18,747 nucleotides of DNA, from contig NW_003314472.1 of the NCBI RefSeq assembly GCF_000143415.4, positions 1-18,747 of the forward strand, given 5' to 3'. This DNA comes from Selaginella moellendorffii. Taxonomy: Eukaryota; Plantae; Lycopodiophyta. The translations under genes were made by a program, and so were the position numbers. A model generated the notes under the pieces. That model saw only the letters and a program-made list of their open reading frames with translations. It made no database searches and was not told where the DNA came from. Shown here in pieces: positions 2,308 through 17,199 of this stretch (its first letter is position 1; every line of letters starts with the position of its first letter).

Positions 2308-3175
2308 GGGGTGAAGTGCTTGTCTCCCTGGGGTGTGGTAGGCCGCGAGCACTGGAAGGATGCGAGTGGGGGATGCGAGTGTTGGGCAGCCGAGGCTAGA
2401 CCTTTGGGTGCCCAGCTCCACACCCCCAAGCTGGACTTCCAGTGCATGTGCGGGCTGCTGCTGGGCTCCTCCCCGCGTGCACCATGTCGGGGTCGGACTC
2501 GGGCTCCATCTCGGACTCGGGTTCCGGCTCGGACATGGACACGTGGGGGTGAAAGCCCAAAGCGCTTGTCTCCCTGGGGCGTGGTAGGCCGTGAGCACCG
2601 GAAGGATAGTGGGGGATGCGAGTGTTGGGCAGCCGAGGTCAGACCTCGGGTGCCCGGCTCCACACCCCCAGCTGGACTTCCAGTGCATGTGCGGGCTGCT
2701 GCTGGGCTCCTCCCCGCGTGCACCATGTCGGGGTCGGACTCGGGCTCCATCTCGGACTCGGGTTCCGGCTCGGACATGGACACGTGGGGGTGAAAGCCCA
2801 AAGCGCTTGTCTCCCTGGGGCGTGGTAGGCCGTGAGCACCGGAAGGATAGTGGGGGATGCGAGTGTTGGGCAGCCGAGGTCAGACCTCGGGTGCCCGGCT
2901 CCACACCCCCAGCTGGACTTCCAGTGCATGTGCGGGCTGCTGCTGGGCTCCTCCCCGCGTGCACCATGTCGGGGTCGGACTCGGGCTCCATCTCGGACTC
3001 GGGTTCCGGCTCGGACGTGGACACGTGGGGGTGAAAGCCCAAAGCGCTTGTCTCCCTGGGGCGTGGTAGGCTGCGAGCTCTGGAAGGATAGTGGGGGATG
3101 GGAGTGTGGGCAGCCGAGGTCAGACCTCTCCACACCCCCTGCTGGACTTCCAGGGCATGCGCGGGCTCCTGCCTG
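2308..3175 (+). repeat. rDNA IGS subrepeat array, 241-bp GC-rich unit, ~3.6 copies
   Basis: GGGGGTGAAAGCCCAAAGCG recurs at 2545, 2786 and 3027 (period 241). The first copy is a variant preceded by a 22-bp duplication at 2286-2330. Confidence 0.9.
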
Positions 3176-4545: not shown

Positions 4546-4664
4546 GAGTGGGTTCAAACCGTGACTATGGCACTGGATCCCATCAGACCTCCAAAGTTAA
4601 GCGTCCCTGGGCTTGAATAGTACTGGGCTGGGTGACCACCCGGGAAGTCCAAGTGACCCCCTCT
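4546..4664 (+). rRNA. 5S rRNA: 5S rRNA gene (divergent variant) linked to 26S in the IGS
   Basis: Aligns without gaps to plant 5S (GGATCCCATCAGA, box A AGTTAAGCG, AGTACT, box C GGGTGACC..GGGAAGTCC). Helices show compensatory changes, with a TATA upstream and a T-run downstream. Confidence 0.85.
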
Positions 4665-4954: not shown

Positions 4955-5078
4955 GCATGCCACGTGTCAATGTGACACACATTGAAAACCATAAAACTCA
5001 CCAAAGCACATGCCACGTGTCAATGTGGCACACATTGAAAACCATAAAACTCTGAGCACAAACCAAAGTGCATGCCAT
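4955..5078. repeat. ~53-62-bp tandem repeat (CATGCCACGTGTCAATGTGRCACACATTGAAAACCATAAAACTC); third copy is split by the gypsy insertion and resumes at 11654
   Basis: Copies start near 4956, 5009 and 5071. The sequence from 11654 (GCCATGTGTCAATGTGGCACACATTGAAAACC) completes the third copy. Confidence 0.8.
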
Positions 5079-5272
5079 TGTAAGCAACCAAAGGGAACGA
5101 CTTGAGAGACGATCCATGGGGTTCAAATATAGAGGGAAAGGGCCCATGAACAAGAGTGCACCCCCTTTTCCAATCGGTTAAGGGTCTTGGGATATTTGGG
5201 GTTAAGCGTCCTTGGGTTTGAATAGTACTGGGCTGGGTGACCTCCCGGGAAGTCCAAACTCAGGACCTTACA
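5079..5272 (+). mobile_element. Short 194-bp 5' LTR containing 5S rRNA nt ~51-107 (Cassandra-like)
   Basis: Perfect 6-bp inverted termini TGTAAG/CTTACA. 5201-5257 matches the local 5S gene (4596-4652) at 54/57 nt. PBS follows 2 nt later. Confidence 0.85.
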
Positions 5273-5274
5273 TT

Positions 5275-5287
5275 TGGTATCGGAGCC
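5275..5287 (+). promoter_or_regulatory. Primer-binding site, tRNA-iMet type
   Basis: TGGTATCGGAGCC versus canonical TGGTATCAGAGCC; the single difference allows G-U pairing. Confidence 0.85.
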
Positions 5288-8200
5288 TTCTCCTCAGTTC
5301 TAGCGAAGGAGAGAGGCAGATTGCTGGGAGATGGCAAGGGCAGGGCGTAAGCGAACCCAGGCGGAGACAGAACCTCCGCCAGAGCTGGAGCCTCCGGTCG
5401 AACAAGAGGCTATGGATGAGGAATCCTTGCATGAGGAGGACTCTAGTGAGGAAACTTCCAAACAGGAGTCCGGTGGCGAGGTTCGGTCGTCCAAGGCTCG
5501 ATTGGACGTTCTAGAAGGTCAATTGGCGCAGACCAATGCCCTGCTGGAGACTCTCGTACGCAAGCTAAAGCGTGACGAGAAACGGAAGAAAAGGCGAAAG
5601 ACTGCGGATGCTGGCAGCGCAGAAGGTGCGGACCCTTCGGCAGGGACTGAGGCAAAACCAGACAAGGTCGAACAGACCGAAGTGGAATCAGTCCCTCAGG
5701 CAGTTCCCAAGTACAAACCAAAGCCCCCACCGGTGTTCAAGGGAGTGAACGACTATAAGGTGGTGGAGGATTGGTTTTACGATATGGAGGACTACTTCCG
5801 AGCGTTACGGTTACCGAGCTCGGAGAAGGTCCCATGTGCAAAACCATACTTGGCCGATAATGCCAAGTCTTGGTAGAGAACAACGGAGGCCAACGAAGGA
5901 CCGGTGGCCACCTGGGACATGATGAAGGCGAGGATCCGCGCGACATACGTTCCTCCGAATGCCACTCTGCATCTGAGAGATGAGCTGAGTAGGCTGAAGC
6001 AGACTGGAACCATCCAGGAATATGTGAATGGGTTCATGGCAAAGAGGATACTTGTCACCGACATGGGGGATATGGATGCGTTCCATGCCTTTATATCAGG
6101 TTTGCAAACCTGGGCTCGCGGTGAGGTGATGCGCTGGAACCCGACCAACTACAAGGAAGCGTTGGATGCGGCCATCAAGGTGCATTTCAACGATAACCTG
6201 CGAAAGGGGAACACGACGGGGTCGGGATCCACGTTTCACAAAGGGGCCAAACCGAGGGGAACATATAGCAGGGGGAAATTCAAGAAGAGTTTCTCTAAGA
6301 ATGAGTCCTCGGGATTTCGGAAAGGCAAATCCGGTGGCCAGCGAGCAAGTACGTGGGGGAGTCAAGCGAAAAGAGACAAACCCACGGATAAGAAGGTCAA
6401 GTCATATAGCAGCGTGGGAAACAACGTATGCTATAACTGCGGTGAAGCGGGACACTTTTCGAGGGAATGTCCCTACCCGAAGAAGGCCAGAGCCAATATG
6501 GCCATCAAGTCGGGCGAAGTCCAAAATGAGGTATGTGATCCAGTCCCTAACTCAAAGTTACTCATTACACGAGCAACTTTGGTAGAGAGTCGTTCGCGAC
6601 ATCTACTAGCCCTCCGAGGGAAGCTCGGAGGTAGCTTTGTTAAGATCCTTATTGACACGGGTGCTTCGGATAATTTTGTGGCTGCAGACATAGTCCGGCA
6701 AGCCGGACTAACGGTGCAGCGGCTAGGCGAACCAAGGACTATAGAGTTTGTTCAAGGTAGCCAAAGCACCGATGAGGTACTTCGACAAGCGAAAGTCGAA
6801 GTAGGGACATGGAAGGTAGACATGGATTTCACCGTGTTGGACATGGCGGGATTTGACGTGATCTTCGGAATGGATTGGTTCAATCGGTTCGTGGTAGCCC
6901 TACATGGACAAGGTAGGAACCTTGTGGTACTGGCGAATGCCCAAGGAAGAAGATCTAGGGTGGAAGCCCAGGATCTAAAGGTAGGGCAAAGCAAGGCCAA
7001 AGAATCCTGCTTAAACCTGGTGTCCACGAGAGGACAACTCACTAAAGGAACTAAGGCAACCTTTTTGTGCTTACTCTCGGTGAAGAGTGACAAAAAGACA
7101 AGAACGGAAGAAGTGCCTTTAGTGATCCAGCGGGTGTTGGACCAATTCCAGGATACCATGCCGGAGGAGCTACCGGCGGGGCTGCCCCCAGCACGACCAA
7201 TAGAACATAAGATTGAGCTGGTCGAGGGTGCTGAGGCAGTGGTTCGTCCCCCTTATCGTTTGAACGAAAAAGAACTCAAGGAGCTCAAGTGCCAACTAGA
7301 GGAGTTGGTGGACAAAGGGTATGTTAGGTTGAGCAAGTCGCCGTATGGGGCGCCGGTGTTATTTGTGAAAAAGAAAGATGGATCTATGCGCATGTGCATA
7401 GACTACCGCTTGCTCAACAAGTATACAAAGAAGAACAAGTACCCTTTGCCAAGGATTGAGGACCTGTTCGATAGGTTGGGAAAGGCAAAATACTTCTCGA
7501 GGATTGACCTAAGGTCAGGATACTACCAGATCAGGGTAGCCGAGGAAGATGTCGAGAAGACAACCTGTCGAACGAGGTATGGGAGCTTTGAGTTTCTGGT
7601 GATGCCCTTCGGGCTATGTAATGCGCCGGCAACGTTTTCGGCGCTAATGAACCACGTCTTTGTACCCTATCTGGATCACTTCGTGGTCGTCTATATCGAC
7701 GACATCCTGATCTATAGCGAGACGCTAGAAGAGCATGCCGAACACTTGGCGAAGGTGTTTGAGAAACTAAGGGAACACAAGCTGTATGCTAAAGAGAGCA
7801 AATGTGACTTTGCTCAACAAGAGGTAAAGTTTCTCGGGCATGTGGTGGGCTAGGACGGGCTCAAGGTGGACCCGGAGAAGGTCCAAGCGATCCAGGAATG
7901 GGAGCGACCATCGAATGTACATGAGTTGAGGGCGTTCCTGGGGCTATGCAACTACTATCGAAAGTTTATTAGACACTATTCGAGAGTAGCCCTGCCCTTA
8001 ACGGACCAAACAGGAAAAGGGAAGATGGTATGGACAGCAGAATGCGAGGCGGCATTCGTCCACCTCAAAGGGAAGTTGAGGAAGGCTCCCGTATTGGCAT
8101 TGCCAGACTTTGGTAAGGACTTTGAGGTAGAAACGGATGCTTCGGACTTTGCGTTGGGCGCAGTTCTGAAGCAAGACAACCATCCGGTAGCGTTCTTCTC

Positions 8201-9204
8201 GAAGAAGCTGGACAAGGCTCAACGGAAGTGGCCTGCCCATGAGAAGGAATTGTTTGCGGTGGTCAAGGCACTCAAGGAGTGGCGACACTACCTTGGGAGA
8301 CACTTCAAGGTTTACACGGACAATGTGGCGACGAAACACTTCTTGTCACAGCCCGACCTAAGAGGGAAACAAGGTCGGTGGGCCAATGCCTTGGCCGAGT
8401 TTGATTGCGAAATTCTGTACAAGCCTGGGAAGAGCAACATCGTGGCGGATGCGCTAAGTCGAAAAGCGAGCTTGAAGTTGGCAATATCCAGCGCAACAGC
8501 AACCTTCTGGGACGATGTGCGGACAGCATATGAGAATGATGGTCTAGCACAAGAAGTGTTGCTGAGGAATCTAGAGGCGCGGGAAGCTCACCAGAGAGGT
8601 GAGCTGCCAACGGAAGAGAAAATGGGCTATGCGGAACGCAACGGACTCATTTATTACAAGCAAACGAGGGTGTATGTTCCAGAAGGGGAACTAAGGAAGG
8701 TGGCCTTAGAAGAGTGTCATGACGGACCTCTTGCGGGACACGGCGGAGTGCCCAAGACGATGGGCTTACTCAAGAGGAAGTACCATTGGCCAGATATGGC
8801 TAAGGACGTCCAAGACTATGTAAAGACATGTCCAACATGTCAGCAGGTCAAAGCCGTGACTAAGGCTAGTGGGGGCTTGTTGCAAAGCATCCCAATTCCA
8901 GATCGCCCGTGGAAATGTCTTACGATGGACTTCATCACGGGACTACCCCCAAGCGAGGGGTTTGATGCGATATTCGTGGTGGTGGACCGATTTTCAAAGA
9001 TGGCACATTTCATACCCACCACAACGGACGTGGATGCGGAAGGTGTGGCGAAGCTGTTCTTTGAACAAGTGGTTCGAGTGCGGGGAAGGCCGGAAGAGAT
9101 TATCTCAGATCGAGATAAGATCTTCACTAGTAGGTTCTGGAGGACACTCCTAGAACAGTATCGCACCAAATTGAAATTCAGCACAGCCTATCACCCACAG
9201 ACAG

Positions 9205-9251
9205 GTAATGGGTATTAAGTCAAGATTGATGGCACTAACACTTCTTGACAG
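9205..9251 (+). other. 47-nt GT-AG spliceosomal intron in the integrase core
   Basis: CAG|GTAATG...CACTAAC...CTTCTTGACAG|; removal restores the conserved AYHPQTDGQTERVN. Confidence 0.85.
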
Positions 9252-9669
9252 ACGGACAAACGGAAAGGGTGAATAGGCAGCTGGAGGATTATTTGCGATG
9301 CTATGTCTCGGGAGACCAGACCGACTGGGTAAGTCATTTGGGACTTGCGGAAATGTGTTATAACAACTCACCACACTCAAGCATCGGGGTGAGCCCATGG
9401 GAAGTCATCAATGGGCGAGCTATTGAAGGTCCTGTGGAACTCGGCGTGGCCGAGTATCATGGAGAGTTACCCGCAGTGGAGGCATTCACGGCGGAAAGAC
9501 TCAACATTTGGAATCTAGTGAGGGATTCCTTGGAACGGGCTCAACAAAGGCAAACTAAGTACGCGAACCAAAAGCGTCGGGATGTGGAGTTCCAAGCTGG
9601 GGAGAAGGTATGGCTGAACACCAAGAACCTCAGACTACCAAGCTGGATCAGCCGAAAGTTGACCCAAAG

Positions 9670-9721
9670 GTAAAGACGCCTGTATTCCTGTAAATGAATT
9701 GATCTTGAGTTCCTTAAGCAG
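9670..9721 (+). other. 52-nt GT-AG spliceosomal intron just before the GPY/F motif
   Basis: AAG|GTAAAG...TTCCTTAAGCAG|G; removal restores RKLTQRFAGPYEI in frame with the chromodomain. Confidence 0.85.
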
Positions 9722-10198
9722 GTTCGCGGGGCCTTATGAAATTGAGGCACGAATCGGTAAAGTGGCTTACCGACTCCGACTTCCTCGAGAGATGGGGAAG
9801 ATGCACCCAGTGTTCCACGTGAACTTACTCAAGCCGTACTTTGAGGATCCGCTTCGCAAGGACCAAGTGAGACCTTTACCTGAGGTTATCCAAGGGGAAG
9901 AGAAATACGAAGTCGAGGCCATCCTCAATGCGCGCAAGAGCAAGCGACAAGGACGCGAGGTGAGAGAGTTCCATGTGAAGTGGAAAGGATTTCCACACTG
10001 CGAAGCAACATGGGAACCGGAGGAGAACCTAGCGAACGCACGAGATCTAGTGGAGGAATTTCTGCAAGGCAGAACTTTATGTACTTATGCAAAATTCAAT
10101 TAAAAATATCAATTTGCAAAGTTGAGCAAATGGCATATGTTGGGACCCGAAGGCGCGCCAAAGGTAAGCTAATTAGCATGGGTTGGATAGGTCGACCA

Positions 10199-10485
10199 GG
10201 CGTAGGGCACTACGCCCGACTCCCTGCGGGGATGTCGAATCCGTAGACGTATTCTACGGAGGTTGGGTTCGAGTCCCAACCCCCTAGTAAAGCAAGGCTG
10301 GGTTCAAGTCCCGACCCTATACTAGGGCGTGGTGAGGTGAGGAATATAGGGACACCTATATTCCGTTGTCATGGGCTCTTGGCCGGGGAGGCTAACTTAA
10401 GCACACCGCTAAGTGGGGGGATGCCCCCGGAGACATGGACAACAAGTCGTAGGATAAAACGAGACGTTCGATGTGGGCATCGAAC
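10199..10485 (+). other. Structured RNA region in the 3' UTR (serial hairpins, two T-arm/B-box motifs)
   Basis: Eight or more stems are visible by eye, including GGTTGGG-TTCGAGT-CCCAACC and GGAATATAGG-GACA-CCTATATTCC. Confidence 0.65.
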
Positions 10486-10492
10486 TTCTTCT

Positions 10493-10506
10493 ATGGGTGG
10501 TGGAGT
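10493..10506 (+). promoter_or_regulatory. Polypurine tract
   Basis: ATGGGTGGTGGAGT directly before the TGTAAG that starts the 3' LTR. Confidence 0.75.
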
Positions 10507-11653
10507 TGTAAGGAACCGACTCCCCGAGATGTCGTAGGCTAAAGGATCCCCAAAAGCTTGACCGAAGTGACAAAGAGTTCATCAGATGGGACCAAGTCGA
10601 GGATCGAGTCCAAGACTGACTCTAGGACCGAGTTCGAGATAGAGTCCGGAATCGAATCCGAGACTGACTCGGGGACCGAGTTCGAGTCCGAGTTCGAGAC
10701 CGAGTTCGAGACGGAGTCCGGATCCGAAATCGGGTCTGAGACCGAGTCCGAGGTCGAGTCCGAGGTCGGGTCCGAGATCGGGTCCGAGATCAAGTCCGTG
10801 ATCGAGTCCGAACCCGAATCCGAAGTCGGATCCGAAATCGGGTCCGAGATCGAGCCAGAGACTAAGTCCAAATACTAATACGGGTCAAGGGGTGAAAGCC
10901 CAAAGCGTGCGTCTCCCAGGGGGGGGGGGCTGCAGGGGGTTCCAAAAGTATAGTAGGGATAGTGAGGTCCAGGAACCAGTTTAGAAGGGACTCTCCAGTT
11001 GGGCTTCCAAACCGACTTGAGGTTGGGACTGGGACCGAGGGGCCTTGGGTGGGAGTGAGCATGGACTTGGCTGGTGCCGGAGGGGCCATCCAAGGAAGTG
11101 CTCAAGAGCAGCTCCCACTCCCGAAAGGGAAACCGATTGCGGTGCTCCCGGCTCAGGTGGAGTGGTGCCCCACTTGAGTACCTTGTGGCTCATTGGTCCT
11201 CGCCCTTCCGGGGGCTTGGGCCTTTCCTTCGGGATGGAAGAGGGGGGGTAGAGGTACCCATACCGGGCCGTTAGGCCATGGTGTTTCACCCCGACGTCCC
11301 GAAGCAAGTGCTGCACCCAAGGCTTGGGATTTAGAGGGTCCCATGATCAAGCCTTGTGATACCTTGGGGTGTTAGGAATCTGGAGGCTTGGTGTGCTTGG
11401 CTGCTTGTGCCTGCGGGGAGTGTAGCCGAACCTTAAGTCCAGTCTAACCCGGGGAGGGGGATTGGGAGAGATTTGGGAATCCGTAGATGGATGGCTAACA
11501 CTCCGTTGCTCGTGCAGTAAGTAGTTGAAACCAAGTAGGAGCTGGCACCATAGGCGAGAACCTTGGCGAGGGAACTTAGCACAAGCCAAGGCGGAGTTGG
11601 TCGGATAGGCGAGGTAAGCTGGCAAATTGGAAAGGAAAAATTTGTGGCTTACA
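10507..11653 (+). mobile_element. 3' LTR of the chromovirus, 1147 bp
   Basis: TGTAAG...CTTACA termini, preceded by the PPT and followed by the TSD GCCAT. Confidence 0.85.
10590..10860. repeat. Degenerate hexamer array (YCGAGW-like) within the 3' LTR
   Basis: ccgagt/tcgaga/ccgaga/tcgggt periodicity, which produces the spurious E/S-rich ORFs. Confidence 0.8.
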
Positions 11654-11749
11654 GCCATGTGTCAATGTGGCACACATTGAAAACCATAAAACTCTATGAG
11701 ATCAAACCAAAGGCCATGCCACGTGTCAAAATAAAACTCGGATATATCC

Positions 11750-12222
11750 AGGGCCAGACACATCTGGGGCCCGGCATATCGGGTGCCCGACATGTACGGG
11801 GCCCGACATATCGGGTGCCCGACATGTCCGGGGCCCGATATATCGGGGCCCGGACATGTCTGGGTGCCCGATATGTCCGGGGCCAGACATGTCCGGGGGC
11901 CCGACATATCGGGTGCCCGACATGTTCGGGGCCGGAGATATCGGGGCCCGGACATGTCCGGGGCCCGACGTATTGGGTGCCCGACATGTCCGGGGCCCGA
12001 TATATCTGGGGCCCGACATCTCTGGGGCCCGACATATCGGGTGCCCGACATATCCGGGGCCCGACATGTCCGGGGCCGGATATGTCGGGGCCCGGATATG
12101 TCTGGGTGCCCGACATGTCCGGGGCCAGACATGTCCGGGGCCCGATATATCTGGGGCCGGACATATCGGGTGCCCGACATATCTGGGGCCCGACATGTCC
12201 GGGGCCCGACATATCCAGGGCC
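11750..12222. repeat. ~16-bp quasi-palindromic minisatellite (CCCGACATRTC(C)GGG(T)G)
   Basis: About 29 units of 15-18 nt, each nearly self-complementary, often joined by GGGCCC. Confidence 0.9.
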
Positions 12223-12751: not shown

Positions 12752-12789
12752 AAACCCTACCCTACCCTACCCTAAACCCTAAACCCTAC
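12752..12789. repeat. Short interstitial telomere-like tract (CCCTA and CCCTAAA units)
   Basis: AAACCCTACCCTACCCTACCCTAAACCCTAAACCCTAC. Confidence 0.6.
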
Positions 12790-12945
12790 ACTTGCACATG
12801 GCATAGTGTTGCGTTCCATACATTGAGCCCGTGTGCCATCTTTAGAGCACGTGGAATAACACGTGGCGATATAAGTTACTACGAAAAAAAACAACTCATA
12901 AACATCCAACTTTAGCCGAAATATGAGTTAGCAACACTACATTTA

Positions 12946-14091
12946 TGTAGCGCACGTGGTTTTGACCCTTTATCCTATGGTGATTTACCATAGGATAACA
13001 CCACGAAGCGGAACCTAAACCCTCTTTGTGCCACGTGACAGATGCCACGTGTCACATGCCACGTGTCCATGCCACGTGTCCTTAGGAACCCAAGGTTCAG
13101 GGCCTTGGGCCACTGAACGAAGGAACGGTGCCAAACTCCCAAGCGTGACGCCAAGGAGTGGTGGAACCGGACCACGGAGCAACTCCCGAGCATATAGCCC
13201 AAGGAGCGAAGGGACAGGAGCCCGGAGCGACTTGGAACAGTCCTGGAGCAACCAGCATACCAATGCCAGGACCAGCACGCAAAACGGAGCCAAACGGAGT
13301 CTGGCGCTATTTCGGCATACCGGTGGCCTAATGTGAGGATATGGGTACTCCACCAGCTAGCATGGAATGGAACTTGGGCTTAGACCCAAGCCGGACGCAG
13401 AACAAGGACAGGCACGCAAGCGGGAGCTAGACTATGCCTCAGGTTGGTCGGCCATGCCCGACCTACCCACTATCCCTACTATACATTTGGAACCCCCCAC
13501 AGCCCCCCCCCCCCTTGAGGAACACACGCTTTGGGCTTTCACCCCAAGCCTCCCTTAGTATCAGGAGTTAGTCTCTGGGACAAGCTCGAAACTTACTAAA
13601 TATGGAATGTCCTTAGATTGCGAATTTGGACATGGGACAAACACCATTGTGTTCAGGCCGATCTCTACATTCCGTAGATATGCCAAATGAGCAAATCTGG
13701 ACACTTTCCATAAATAGCATTTGGGACCGAAATGAGACTAACACAAAGGGCATGATAGCGAGGGTGTTTGGCAGACACGGTAAGCTATCATGTAGCGATA
13801 TTGAGGGACCAATCTCAATACGCGAGGGTTCTTGTCAAGCCAGTGCAAGACAAAACGAGACGAGAACTCCTTACCGGGCTAAGTATGCTTAGCTAATAAC
13901 ACGTAGGAATTCCGTCCTTATGCTCATCCGGCCAAGTACAGATGCAAAGTCCAGTTTACTAACACTTGAACAAGAGGGACTGATAAAGGGTCCAGCAATA
14001 CCGACCTCCTGCCATCGTGGCAGTAAGGAAAGAGTGTCCGTAAGGACTGGTCGACAGGTAACTTTCGATACCCGAAGTCACATTCGCGACA
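12946..14091 (-). mobile_element. LTR family A, copy 2 (3' LTR of a second minus-strand element), 1146 bp
   Basis: TGTAGCG...CGCGACA, near-identical to 484-1628. No PBS on the left; a PPT is adjacent on the right. Confidence 0.9.
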
Positions 14092-14109
14092 CTCTTGTGC
14101 CTTTCTTTT
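14092..14109 (-). promoter_or_regulatory. Polypurine tract of family A copy 2
   Basis: Minus strand AAAAGAAAGGCACAAGAG immediately precedes the LTR start TGTCGCG. Confidence 0.7.
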
Positions 14110-15561
14110 GTAGCATTATGCTCGGTGGCAGGTTGCACCTTGCATTTTGTTAAGACTCTATGAGAGTAGTGAGCTCTCACTGATCTTGACTTGGTCTTGG
14201 TGGCCCTGCACCTTGGCTGAGGATGGTGATGTCCAACTTAGTTGTTTGAGGTTGAAATGTTGGTACCCGTACTATAGCTTTGTCTATGAGGAGGTTGTGT
14301 ACCGATATGAGTCCATCTCATGGTCTTCACTTTAGTTTCGACTGAGTGTTGATCACATAGCTAGCCTCTTCAAGGCATGCTCAGAGCTATTGACTAAATG
14401 CATTAGTGAGCTTATTGCGGTTGAGTTGGATTCGAGTGGTCATTTAGTTTGTGCTTGTCTATGAACTTTTATCTCGTACCTGGGGTATTATGTTCATGTT
14501 GGACAAGTATGTAACTTGATGACATGAGTTAGTGTTCGGGTCTTGTGAAGGCAAGTTGAAGGGCGATTGTTAGTTGCTTTGCGACTAGTGATTACTTGTA
14601 GACTTTGTCAAAAAGACCGTTGACACTTGTTTTGCTCGATGATGATTTAGCAGTGGTGGGCTTGCTTGACCGGATGGTGTTGCGGAGGATCGTGTTGTTG
14701 GACTTGCATGGTTTTCCATGTTGGCATGTCGACTTTACCTCTGTTGATATCATTTGGTTACATTTAGTCCGTAGTATTGGATTTCATTGAGTCTTGGACG
14801 TGGTGAATCACTTCTTGATGATGTGTTATCTGTAACTGAGTATTGTTAGAGGATTGGTCTCGGATACTAAGTATAGTATCTTCGACTATGGTTAGCTTGG
14901 TTGCTAGAGAGTTTCAAGTGGTGATTCACTCTTGCTTTCTTCTAGCTTTGTTCTGTTGTTGATGGCATTGAAGTGATGCCTTGTCATTGACATTGTTGAT
15001 GTTGAGGTAAAATGAAATGAGATATCTCTCCATAGGATTGATATTGAGTTTCATTAGTCTTGATAAAAAGTGATGATTTGGCTTTAGCTTTGTGTTGTTG
15101 GCATTTGTGCAATTGCTAGTTAGCAACTGTATTGACGTTCAAATAAACTGAGTGGCAAGTTTGGGTTAGTTGTGTTCTAGACGAGATTGCTTAGTTGAGG
15201 TTGAGCTTTAGCTTTTCCTTGAAAAGTGATTTAGTCGTGAACAATGCTACCTCTATAAGAGTAAGAGTTAGTGATTGGCATTGAAGTGATTGAATCCTTC
15301 TTGGATTTCAATTGAGATATATCAATCATTAATGATTTTTCTTGTGCTTGTTATGAGGTGAGTTACGTCTTGCTGTAGATGGATTCATGGAGGATCGTTT
15401 GATGATCACTTGTTGAGCATAGCTTCGTTATACTTAGCTTTTGGATTGATGCAGAAATGCTCTTCGTTAGCTTTGGTATTATGAAGTTTGGCTTATGGAT
15501 GTGTTGAGGAAGATATTGTGGGTTGCACCATGATTTCTTCTTTAGCATTGAAGTTAGCTTA
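14110..15561 (-). mobile_element. Probable non-coding 3' internal region of family A copy 2
   Basis: Adjacent to the PPT, with strong G/T skew on plus and no convincing ORF. Confidence 0.45.
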
Positions 15562-16328
15562 GCATGCCATGTGTCAATGTGGCACACATTGAAAACCATA
15601 AAACTCTATGAGATCAAACCAAAGGCCATGCCACGTGTCAAATTAAAACTCGGATATATCCAGGGCCAGACACATCTGGGGCCCGGCATATCGGGTGCCC
15701 GACATGTACGGGGCCCGACATATCGGGTGCCTGACATGTACGGGGCCCGACATATCGGGTGCCCGACATGTCCGGGGCCCGATATGTCTGGGGCCGGATA
15801 TATCGGGTGCCCGACATGTCCGGGGCCGGACATATCGGGGCCCGGACATGTCCGGGGCCGGACATATCGGGTGCCCGACATGTCCGGGGCCGGATATGTC
15901 CGGGGGCCCGACATATCGGGTGCCCGACATGTTCGGGGCCGGAGATATCGGGGCCCGGACATGTCCGGGGCCCGATATATCTGGGGCCCGACATCTCTGG
16001 GGCCCGACATATCGGGTGCCCGACATATCCGGGGCCCGACATGTCCGGGGCCGGATATGTCGGGGCCCGGATATGTCTGGGTGCCCGACATGTCCGGGGC
16101 CCGATATATCTGGGGCCGGACATATCGGGTGCCCGACATATCTGGGGCCCGACATGTCCGGGGCCCGAGATATCCAGGGCCTGAGGTATGCCACATGGCA
16201 TACAAGTGCAGAAGAGGTACCTTCCAATGTCATGTCACGTGGCATGCAACCTCAAAGGTGCCACCTCTCCAAGGGTTTGTCACGTGACATGCAACCTCCA
16301 AGATGCCACCTTTCCAAGGGTTTGCCAC
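15562..16328. repeat. Second copy of the satellite block at 11654-12368, including the uninterrupted gypsy target site
   Basis: GCATGCCATGTGTCAATGTGGCACAC... with a single GCCAT (15566-15570), followed by the same 16-bp and 39/45-bp arrays. Confidence 0.85.
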
Positions 16329-17199
16329 NNNNNNNNNNNNNNNNNNNNNNNNNNNNNNNNNNNNNNNNNNNNNNNNNNNNNNNNNNNNNNNNNNNNNNNN
16401 NNNNNNNNNNNNNNNNNNNNNNNNNNNNNNNNNNNNNNNNNNNNNNNNNNNNNNNNNNNNNNNNNNNNNNNNNNNNNNNNNNNNNNNNNNNNNNNNNNNN
16501 NNNNNNNNNNNNNNNNNNNNNNNNNNNNNNNNNNNNNNNNNNNNNNNNNNNNNNNNNNNNNNNNNNNNNNNNNNNNNNNNNNNNNNNNNNNNNNNNNNNN
16601 NNNNNNNNNNNNNNNNNNNNNNNNNNNNNNNNNNNNNNNNNNNNNNNNNNNNNNNNNNNNNNNNNNNNNNNNNNNNNNNNNNNNNNNNNNNNNNNNNNNN
16701 NNNNNNNNNNNNNNNNNNNNNNNNNNNNNNNNNNNNNNNNNNNNNNNNNNNNNNNNNNNNNNNNNNNNNNNNNNNNNNNNNNNNNNNNNNNNNNNNNNNN
16801 NNNNNNNNNNNNNNNNNNNNNNNNNNNNNNNNNNNNNNNNNNNNNNNNNNNNNNNNNNNNNNNNNNNNNNNNNNNNNNNNNNNNNNNNNNNNNNNNNNNN
16901 NNNNNNNNNNNNNNNNNNNNNNNNNNNNNNNNNNNNNNNNNNNNNNNNNNNNNNNNNNNNNNNNNNNNNNNNNNNNNNNNNNNNNNNNNNNNNNNNNNNN
17001 NNNNNNNNNNNNNNNNNNNNNNNNNNNNNNNNNNNNNNNNNNNNNNNNNNNNNNNNNNNNNNNNNNNNNNNNNNNNNNNNNNNNNNNNNNNNNNNNNNNN
17101 NNNNNNNNNNNNNNNNNNNNNNNNNNNNNNNNNNNNNNNNNNNNNNNNNNNNNNNNNNNNNNNNNNNNNNNNNNNNNNNNNNNNNNNNNNNNNNNNNNN
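16329..17199. other. Assembly gap (871 N)
   Basis: Run of N. Confidence 1.

Follow-up and report, generated by a model that had tools for sequence, protein, structure and literature searches.

Cassandra elements have been described from ferns and angiosperms. Their LTRs carry Pol III promoter boxes A and C, 18 nt apart, and a tRNA-Met primer binding site (PBS) follows after a 2-nt spacer (PMC7215508, PMC10853983, PMC10886601). The terminal redundancy is 18 bp (PMC10886601). In two of these papers the autonomous partner of Cassandra is stated to be unknown, and LTR sequence shared with the helper is not to be expected for Pol III TRIMs (PMC10886601, PMC7215508), so that the usual route to a helper fails. 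Ajax and Helenus (TRIMp3) likewise hold a Pol III promoter fragment in the LTR of a non-autonomous element, but Ajax is nemertean and primed by tRNA-Leu, while Helenus has a tRNA-like promoter and other termini; for both, the helpers had been deduced from likeness in the PBS or the internal region rather than from a chimeric element (PMC10886601). Another of the closest described systems is SM1-Galahad, a chromovirus of the Galadriel clade from Selaginella moellendorffii (PMC3350952).

The window analysed here is an 18,747-nucleotide stretch of S. moellendorffii DNA (contig NW_003314472.1) containing an element that combines features of both. This element is probably a single chimera, consisting of a 5S-bearing, Cassandra-like left LTR and an SM1-Galahad-like body and right LTR, joined at the PBS during reverse transcription. 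The body matches SM1-Galahad by published dimensions and layout only: an ORF of 3885 bp (1295 aa) runs to the integrase core in both, the chromodomain lies in a separate 309-bp ORF, the middle ORFs compare at 318 versus 316 bp, with a long LTR at each end the element would measure 7528 bp (about 7.5 kb in SM1-Galahad), and the 1147-bp LTR compares with 1076/1146 bp. The two are also alike in a poly-G of 11, a 13-nt Met PBS and a group I chromodomain (PMC3350952). Unlike SM1-Galahad, the window element has an unrelated 194-bp 5S LTR at its 5' end.

Insertion site and terminal repeats

Positions 5079-11653 form one insertion, bounded by GCCAT on both sides as a preliminary description had claimed (a 5-mer match by chance, about 1e-3). 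That description had a 'tandem repeat' unit split by the element; a repeat is indeed interrupted, but it was identified as the 53-bp subrepeat region of the rDNA intergenic spacer, downstream of the 25S 3' end (at about 1629-2191) and of a 5S gene (Table 1). Contigs from 5 of 15 public runs (X1, X3, X4, X5 and X7) were used for comparison, and a true empty site was found in one X3 and one X5 contig. Positions 15562-15600, earlier taken as the uninterrupted site, were rejected as an empty site, since only 4 bases of left context are kept there. A spacer copy in the window breaks at 15562, 4 bases off the insertion site, a second break which hints that rearrangements may occur readily here. A third iMet-primed LTR family is also present in the same rDNA window, which has an N gap at about 16329-17199 and in which no tRNA genes were found. 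Rfam microRNA matches on 16-bp repeats were dismissed, their scores lying below the gathering scores.

Table 1. Features of the insertion and its surroundings (window coordinates)
Feature	Position	Strand	Basis or remark
Host 5S rRNA gene, full, in rDNA spacer (context)	4546..4664	+	Rfam 90.9 bits
Left TSD copy GCCAT, within rDNA spacer subrepeat	5074..5078	+	Empty site in X3 and X5 contigs
Complete 194-bp LTR of 5S-bearing Cassandra-like family, acting as 5' LTR	5079..5272	+	Many unrelated contig flanks, left and right; own upstream purine tract
Predicted R region, about 18-19 nt	5151..5169	+	Inferred: Pol III start 5151 by host-5S box A offset; T4 run 5166-5169
5S-derived internal promoter segment	5200..5257	+	Box A 5200-5211, box C 5230-5242
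Crossover interval, 13 bases: TT spacer (short-family type) and first 11 PBS bases common to both parents	5273..5285	+	
tRNA-iMet-type PBS, 13 nt, one base off published consensus	5275..5287	+	Same variant begins Helenus-1_SMo-I
gag-pol ORF1 frame: Gag, CCHC, PR, RT, RNase H, integrase core	5331..9218	+	3885 bp / 1295 codons
47-bp GT..AG intron-like insert, integrase core	9205..9251	+	91 of 91 homologs spanning both anchors are shorter by exactly 47 nt
52-bp GT..AG intron-like insert before SH3/chromodomain tail	9670..9721	+	Homolog length comparison
Group I chromodomain, aromatic Y, W, F at cage positions	9906..10064	+	Pfam PF00385, E 1.7e-16
Chromovirus polypurine tract (PPT)	10493..10506	+	PPT-long LTR junction bridged by X4 contig 10468-10734
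1147-bp chromovirus LTR, SM1-Galahad-like, 11-G tract and 12/24-bp repeats	10507..11653	+	5' LTR in other copies
Right TSD copy GCCAT	11654..11658	+	Boundary comparison

The two homologous LTRs with a common R region that mark an intact LTR retrotransposon were not found here. The left (194 bp) and right (1147 bp) LTRs have only their tips in common, in agreement with the preliminary description: blastn between them gave no significant similarity (best E 5.1), and their global alignment contained chance matches only. Each has a perfect 6-bp terminal inverted repeat, and 10 of the first 11 and all of the last 6 bases are identical between the two. Beyond TG..CA the tips agree at 12/13 positions (binomial probability about 6e-7 to 5e-6, for a comparison stretch picked post hoc); the third iMet-primed family matches these tips at only 4-5/11 and 4/6 bases.

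The short LTR family and the chromovirus body

The 5S boxes A and C reported earlier in the left LTR were both recovered, 18 nt apart, each with one mismatch to the Cassandra consensus (PMC7215508). These mismatches are those of the host 5S gene, whose box A and box C variants are identical to those in the short LTR, and 54 of the 57 bases of the promoter segment equal positions 4596-4652 of that gene, so that the promoter variants mirror the host 5S gene as in Cassandra. An Rfam 5S match at 5182-5269 scored 38.2 bits, where the gathering score is 38. The short LTR showed no 5S-like domain of nearly full length and conserved fold: its match to the host 5S gene is limited to 57 bp, identity upstream of the promoter segment is 13/50, and folding gave no signal (z 0.47). 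Unlike Cassandra, the window LTR thus keeps just the promoter part, as in Ajax, and is fused to an autonomous-type body. Further likenesses to Cassandra are the R region, predicted at about 18 nt, and the iMet PBS just inside the 5' LTR after a 2-nt spacer (11/12 match at 5275), and the angiosperm examples, which start with TGTAAC or TGTGAC and end with GTTACA, have LTR ends similar to those in the window when compared by eye. Helenus-1_SMo has the same PBS variant and other ends. Transcription of the short family by Pol III is predicted from boxes A and C, the offset of the start and the T4 run. A literature search found no Cassandra report from lycophytes, and the short LTR may have arisen independently of the fern and angiosperm Cassandra, as for Ajax. 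The family may be one of the 8 Selaginella TRIM subfamilies (PMC4717578) or a Repbase entry; the element's motifs had no match in the paper supplements searched. Exact-pattern scans gave no match to the short-LTR start in metagenome contigs and none to the 5S promoter motif in metagenome or viral contigs.

In the public-run contigs, short-LTR flanks were heterogeneous (agreement 0.38-0.41 in X1 and X3), and the short family is therefore not tied to one site. Its LTR was preceded by its own purine-rich tract in 45, 23 and 4 contigs of X1, X3 and X7, respectively, and past the PBS ran into a different internal sequence (one X7 and one X5 contig); at both ends the internal sequence in the contigs was unlike gag-pol. 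One low-depth contig held two LTR pieces 359 bp apart, corresponding to an internal region of about 165 bp and a total of about 550 bp if canonical, and one low-depth X7 contig held 644 unaligned letters upstream of the short LTR, with no second LTR. Summed contig depth, which is not a copy number, was higher for the short LTR than for the gag leader. Short-LTR copies differed from the window at 6/257 bases (three X5 pieces) and internal copies at 62/2904 (five X4 pieces), so the divergence from other copies is similar for both parts of the element.

The body has the Gag-PR-RT-RH-IN order and C-terminal chromodomain of a chromovirus (Ty3/gypsy), with Gag, zinc knuckle, protease, RT, RNase H, integrase, SH3 and chromodomain all found. 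Its earlier designation as a full gag-pol element holds for the set of domains, but in this copy gag-pol is no longer intact, ORF1 having in-frame stops at 5874 and 7851. The element has a tRNA-Met PBS combined with an aromatic-cage chromodomain, the Galadriel trait of non-seed plants, unlike the self-primed Tcn1. In a quick tree of 56 rows, which covered 55 of the 179 qualifying homologs and had no labelled references, the window protein grouped with proteins of Vitis, Buddleja and Citrus in a clade of 18 rows (SH-aLRT 98); two inspected members of this clade had Galadriel-like chromo boxes, and a third retains the cage tyrosine. Protein searches returned no close relative (best RNase H-integrase match 49% over the whole query, RT up to 67%), and the three related loci in viral contigs, at 37-38% identity, were too distant for use.

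Junction, origin and candidate helper

The PBS is the site used by second-strand transfer (PMC6088434, PMC12786077), and the join in the window falls at this site. Short-family contigs continue through 5285 and then diverge (two contigs), and long-family contigs have one extra base between the LTR end and the interval 5273-5285. With a spacer of the short-family type and chromovirus sequence after 5285, the crossover is confined to 13 bases. The long-LTR 3' end preceded the gag leader in 22 X1 contigs (agreement 0.99), 3 X7 contigs and 1 X5 contig. Among the joints listed, that from 11653 to 5272 was present in 12 X1 contigs and one X5 contig (with a short side of 66 letters), and no reciprocal chimera occurred among 15 of 294 joints listed. 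The check that had been proposed for the genome, whether each LTR has a family of its own, thus gave two parent families in the public-run contigs. This favours the earlier suggestion of a Cassandra-like LTR and a chromovirus joined at a shared PBS, the crossover lying in spacer and PBS. The alternative then offered, a family with asymmetric ends, was not supported, the gag leader normally following the long LTR. The layout of this single copy is what speaks for a genuine family replicating with two different LTRs; all 26 of the LTR-to-gag-leader contigs listed, from three runs, use the long LTR, SM1-Galahad is described with two LTRs of more than 1 kb (PMC3350952), and the ends have no common R region, which makes such a family exceedingly improbable.

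None of the contigs listed ran across the chimeric junction or across a flank of the insertion (all six X5 pieces, and 24 pieces listed for the other runs, with 19,477 more unlisted). This result, the repeat-rich rDNA and the N gap would fit an assembly or cloning artefact in which two repeats were joined at the shared PBS, but the halves would then need to flank the same GCCAT site and match the empty allele exactly, and we regard an artefact as very unlikely.

Unequal exchange is common in tandem rDNA. A change after integration at this tandem rDNA locus could have taken either of two forms: an ordinary chromovirus may have lost its 5' LTR when a 5S element served as template for microhomology-mediated conversion, or two independent same-site insertions in different rDNA units may have recombined at the PBS. 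Galadriel elements are reported to prefer rDNA, a third LTR family and another break 4 bases from the site lie in this rDNA, and beet has chimeric non-autonomous elements with LTRs from other families (PMC13570524). Conversion, however, needs its left crossover within just 6 common bases. The two-insertion route requires both families at the identical base and in the same orientation, yet the flanks of both LTRs are heterogeneous, and a TSD is usually missing where independent insertions have recombined (PMC1950507). Either form is considered unlikely.

Joining during reverse transcription, the preferred reading, has partial precedents in Angela complexes (PMC1950507), Onsen recombinants (PMC5668417) and beet TRIMs (PMC13570524), in which two templates gave one cDNA and a single integration with a TSD. 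The Angela and Onsen recombinants are within-family and have near-identical outer LTRs (PMC1950507, PMC5668417), whereas in the window unrelated families are joined through the PBS only and two unrelated LTRs are left. Plus-strand strong-stop DNA of the short element would have paired, via the shared PBS, with the chromovirus minus strand, second-strand transfer being the stage at which such intermolecular pairing could occur. Since a complete LTR can come only from an LTR copy that is already finished, as plus-strand strong-stop DNA or as cDNA, the join would have taken place no earlier than plus-strand synthesis. One integrase complex would then have processed the short-family left end together with the chromovirus right end, and since the terminal 6-11 bases are common to both families, this integrase was most likely the chromovirus's own.

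The SM1-Galahad-like family of the Galadriel clade probably acted as helper to the 5S element, and co-packaging in one particle is inferred. The PBS join is not proof of co-packaging, since alternative end joining (alt-EJ) of the host can use PBS microhomology (PMC12786077). Finished or half-finished cDNAs of separate particles could have been joined in this way, with a sister family, for instance SM2-Galahad, as the usual helper: annealing of PBS microhomology by alt-EJ has been reported for second-strand transfer (PMC12786077), the iMet PBS is common to several families in this host, and SM2-Galahad is described as a close relative with TGT..ACA ends (PMC3350952). Both ends must still have been accepted by one integrase complex, however, and the tips beyond TG..CA agree closely, so that this route appears quite unlikely. 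The chimera formed during reverse transcription is best read as a one-off; having ends without a common R region and stops in gag-pol, it is a dead end. It may preserve, as a fossil, a helper and its parasite in one particle, that is, a Pol III-driven, Cassandra-type 5S-LTR element whose copying and integration were carried out by a Galadriel-clade chromovirus, the two having nothing in common beyond the PBS and the tips for integrase attachment, a scenario to which we give slightly less than an even chance.

A PBS-joined chimera is physical evidence that names a testable helper candidate, here a Galadriel-clade chromovirus. If the fossil reading is true, the missing Cassandra partner would have been named, and asymmetric PBS-junction chimeras could be used in genome-wide searches to match helpers to non-autonomous elements. 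A general screen for TSD-flanked elements with unlike LTRs is suggested; pipelines requiring two similar LTRs would presumably drop such elements.

Intron-like inserts in the integrase gene

Separately from the question of origin, two family-wide intron-like inserts were observed to split the integrase gene (Table 1). The first was crossed gap-free by an X4 contig (8970-9715) and the second bridged by an X7 contig (9539-10105). At the second, all 43 of the homologs spanning both anchors gave an excess of 1 mod 3, which was exactly 52 in 13 of them. The inserts divide what would be the 'extra ORFs' of the window element; the word 'intron' does not occur in the SM1-Galahad paper (PMC3350952). 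A review lists Ogre and EVADE as the only notable intron-bearing plant elements. As read from the DNA, the inserts suggest that the family may make full chromodomain integrase only from spliced RNA and package unspliced RNA.

The insertion and its two LTRs

An LTR retroelement bounded by GCCAT on both flanks had been placed at 5079-11653 by the preliminary description, and these coordinates were borne out (a 5-base agreement such as this target-site duplication is expected by chance at ~1e-3). Each terminus (194 bp left, 1147 bp right) carries a perfect 6-bp inverted repeat, and alignments confirmed that the two resemble each other at their ends only (10 of the first 11 bases and all of the last 6), with no significant similarity otherwise. 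A Met-type PBS lies 3' of the left terminus, with TT between, and a purine tract directly 5' of the right terminus. By domain search, the interior encodes Gag, CCHC, protease, RT, RNase H, integrase, SH3 and chromodomain, with in-frame stops in gag-pol at 5874 and 7851.

The body comprises an ORF1 of 3885 bp (1295 codons), a chromodomain ORF of 309 bp and a middle ORF of 318 bp, and the element would measure 7528 bp were both LTRs of the long type (1147 bp with an 11-G tract; PBS 13 nt). In lengths and layout, on which the comparison was made, this matches the published dimensions of SM1-Galahad, a member of the Galadriel clade present in Selaginella moellendorffii in hundreds of copies, as described in PMC3350952 (3885 bp/1295 aa, further ORFs of 309 and 316 bp, ~7.5 kb, LTRs of 1076/1146 bp, 11-25 G, PBS 13 nt). 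According to a supplement passage, Helenus-1_SMo begins with the same PBS variant. Together, these correspondences make Selaginella moellendorffii, or a near relative, the very likely host. The aromatic-cage chromodomain and Met PBS fit a non-seed Galadriel rather than Tcn1, as these are characterized in PMC6317226, and in a quick tree of unlabelled homologs the RNase H-integrase grouped with angiosperm chromoviruses in a supported 18-row clade.

The integrase is interrupted by two GT..AG intron-like inserts (see table). Among 120 homologs compared, exactly 47 nt, the length of the first insert, are absent from all 91 covering the first anchors, and the second corresponds to an excess of 1 mod 3 in all 43 covering the second anchors. 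The first contains a branch-point-like CACTAAC and the only indel listed for 5331-10103 (best 12 of 14 rows), and both were spanned gap-free by contigs of other runs. The inserts are family-wide and account for the 'extra ORFs' of SM1-Galahad. They are predicted to be spliced, and they suggest that full chromodomain integrase would be made only from spliced RNA and that unspliced RNA would be packaged.

Features located in the window
Feature	Position	Strand	Length	Remarks
Third LTR family, two LTRs	484-1628; 12946-14091	minus	1145-1146 bp	96% alike
Third-family Met PBS	471-481
Third-family purine tract	near 14092-14110
Host 5S gene	4546-4664			full-length, linked inside 35S rDNA spacer
Left (short) LTR	5079-5272		194 bp	5S-bearing
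Intron-like insert 1	9205-9251		47 bp	GT..AG; 38% GC (coding region 52%)
Intron-like insert 2	9670-9721		52 bp	GT..AG; 38% GC (coding region 52%)
Right (long) LTR	10507-11653		1147 bp	SM1-Galahad-like

The left LTR is 54/57 identical to the promoter half of the host 5S gene at 5201-5257, and its boxes A and C carry the same non-consensus bases; the upstream half of the gene has no counterpart there (13/50). The host gene itself is divergent, its boxes A and C departing from the consensus used in Cassandra searches. Cassandra motifs (consensus in PMC7215508) were found in the left LTR with one mismatch each; the 5S variants of the host are mirrored as well, as the title of PMC10853983 states for Cassandra and as PMC10946416 describes. 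From the box A offset, transcription is predicted to start at 5151, and the T4 run at 5166-5169, which showed no variant above 5% among the contig matches listed, would give a predicted R of ~18 nt; a redundancy of ~18 nt is described for Cassandra in PMC10886601. Because the promoter half alone of the 5S gene was retained and folding gave no signal, the left LTR is likened to Cassandra by motifs and predicted transcript, as probably working in the same way, and may or may not share its descent.

Parent families and the junction at the PBS

The parent families were examined in Logan contigs from 5 of 15 public sequencing runs (figures from the best 23 of 365 loose-end rows, 30 of 19,507 piece rows and 15 of 294 joints). 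Runs X1 and X3 represent one sample, which could be the source of the window, although almost every X1 contig departs from it at several positions. Among the matches listed, the exact 3' end of the long LTR precedes the gag leader, the start of the chromovirus internal region, in 22 X1 contigs (agreement 0.99), three X7 contigs and one X5 contig; the joint from 11653 to 5272 appeared in 12 X1 contigs and one X5 contig (best 15 of 294 joints), and the passage from PPT to long LTR was bridged by an X4 contig. The short LTR, again among the matches listed, has a different purine-rich internal end upstream (45 X1, 23 X3 and 4 X7 contigs), heterogeneous flanks on both sides (33 + 35 in X1, 28 + 28 in X3; agreement 0.38-0.41), and continues through 5285 into non-gag sequence in one X7 and one X5 contig. 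This separate check of both ends in contigs upheld the proposal of two distinct LTR families. A short-family length of ~550 bp was suggested by one low-depth contig; in another, the 644 letters upstream included no second LTR. Over 5079-5120, 16 X1 contigs among the matches listed represent a variant subfamily of the short LTR whose 5' part has diverged.

Long-family contigs have one extra base between LTR end and TT-PBS, and short-family contigs match the window gap-free through 5285, after which the window follows the long family; the family-specific base and the match limits thus confine the switch to 5273-5285, that is, the spacer and first 11 PBS bases. Plus-strand strong-stop DNA and finished cDNA alone carry a complete LTR, and the 5' end of an RNA never does, so a minus-strand template switch, which cannot yield the full 194-bp left LTR, was ruled out as the origin. 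Second-strand transfer, as presented in PMC6088434 and PMC12786077, consists of base pairing of PBS copies, the same site. The one target-site duplication points to one integration event, by a single complex that would have held both unlike ends. The feature is regarded as real. Most likely, two families were joined at the PBS in a one-off chimera, a variant of the template-switch recombinants already known. It is a single case: no contigs bridging the chimeric junction or insertion flanks were found among the matches listed, and no reciprocal chimera among the best 15 of 294 joints. Alternatively, host alt-EJ could have joined intermediates from separate particles. Later recombination within rDNA, in which the element is set, is possible but unlikely because the flanks are heterogeneous and just 6 bases are common on the left.

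A candidate helper

A Met-type PBS is also present in the third LTR family of the window and in Helenus-1_SMo, so the shared PBS is not specific to one pair. Short and long LTR termini have 12/13 bases beyond TG..CA in common; third-family termini agree with the short LTR at 4-5/11 and 4/6 overall. Judged from these alignments, the termini are the specific link between the short and long families and, together with the apparent joint integration, make SM1-Galahad the best candidate helper of the 5S-LTR element. Cassandra's partner is stated to be unknown in passages of PMC10886601 and PMC7215508. As covered in PMC4717578, eight TRIM subfamilies are listed for Selaginella, no 5S sequence is reported for TRIM families except Cassandra, and the sole TRIM-gypsy pairing is that of SmoRetroS4 (104-bp LTR) with a gypsy element. 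No such chimera or Cassandra-Galadriel link appeared among the matches listed in searches of the open literature (Repbase and subscription papers lie outside this scope). Through the chimera, the helper question for 5S-LTR elements becomes directly testable.

Ribosomal DNA setting

The window is ribosomal DNA, comprising the 25S 3' end, spacer (subrepeats of 241, 67 and 53 bp) and a full 5S gene; rDNA is a known location of Galadriel elements, as noted in PMC10946416 and PMC3605345. An uninterrupted insertion site had been proposed at 15562, where only 4 bases of left context proved to be kept; the true empty site, left flank to right flank over a single GCCAT, was present in one X3 and one X5 contig. 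The sequence at 15562-16328 is a second spacer copy, whose start lies just 4 bases to the left of that GCCAT site and which is fused to the internal region of the third family. Spacer arrays of a near-palindromic 16-bp repeat (11744-12222 and 15656-16181) gave spurious Rfam microRNA matches, and a brief telomere-like run of CCCTA/CCCTAAA units lies at 12766-12790.

One third-family copy interrupts the 25S gene immediately ahead of 1629, and the two third-family LTRs come from different elements, with an rDNA piece enclosed between them. A 110-bp block (83%) is common to the long LTR (10855-10964) and the third family (1006-1114 and 13468-13578) and ends in the motif TATAGTAGGG, which we take to resemble a plant Pol I start site. 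Part of this block recurs in the 241-bp spacer repeats (2546-2579, 2787-2820 and 3028-3074), and the rDNA spacer and the LTRs may have exchanged promoter modules. The long LTR also contains 12/24-bp tandem repeats (10597-10854) with a reverse-like match to 18-bp repeats in the 241-bp spacer units.
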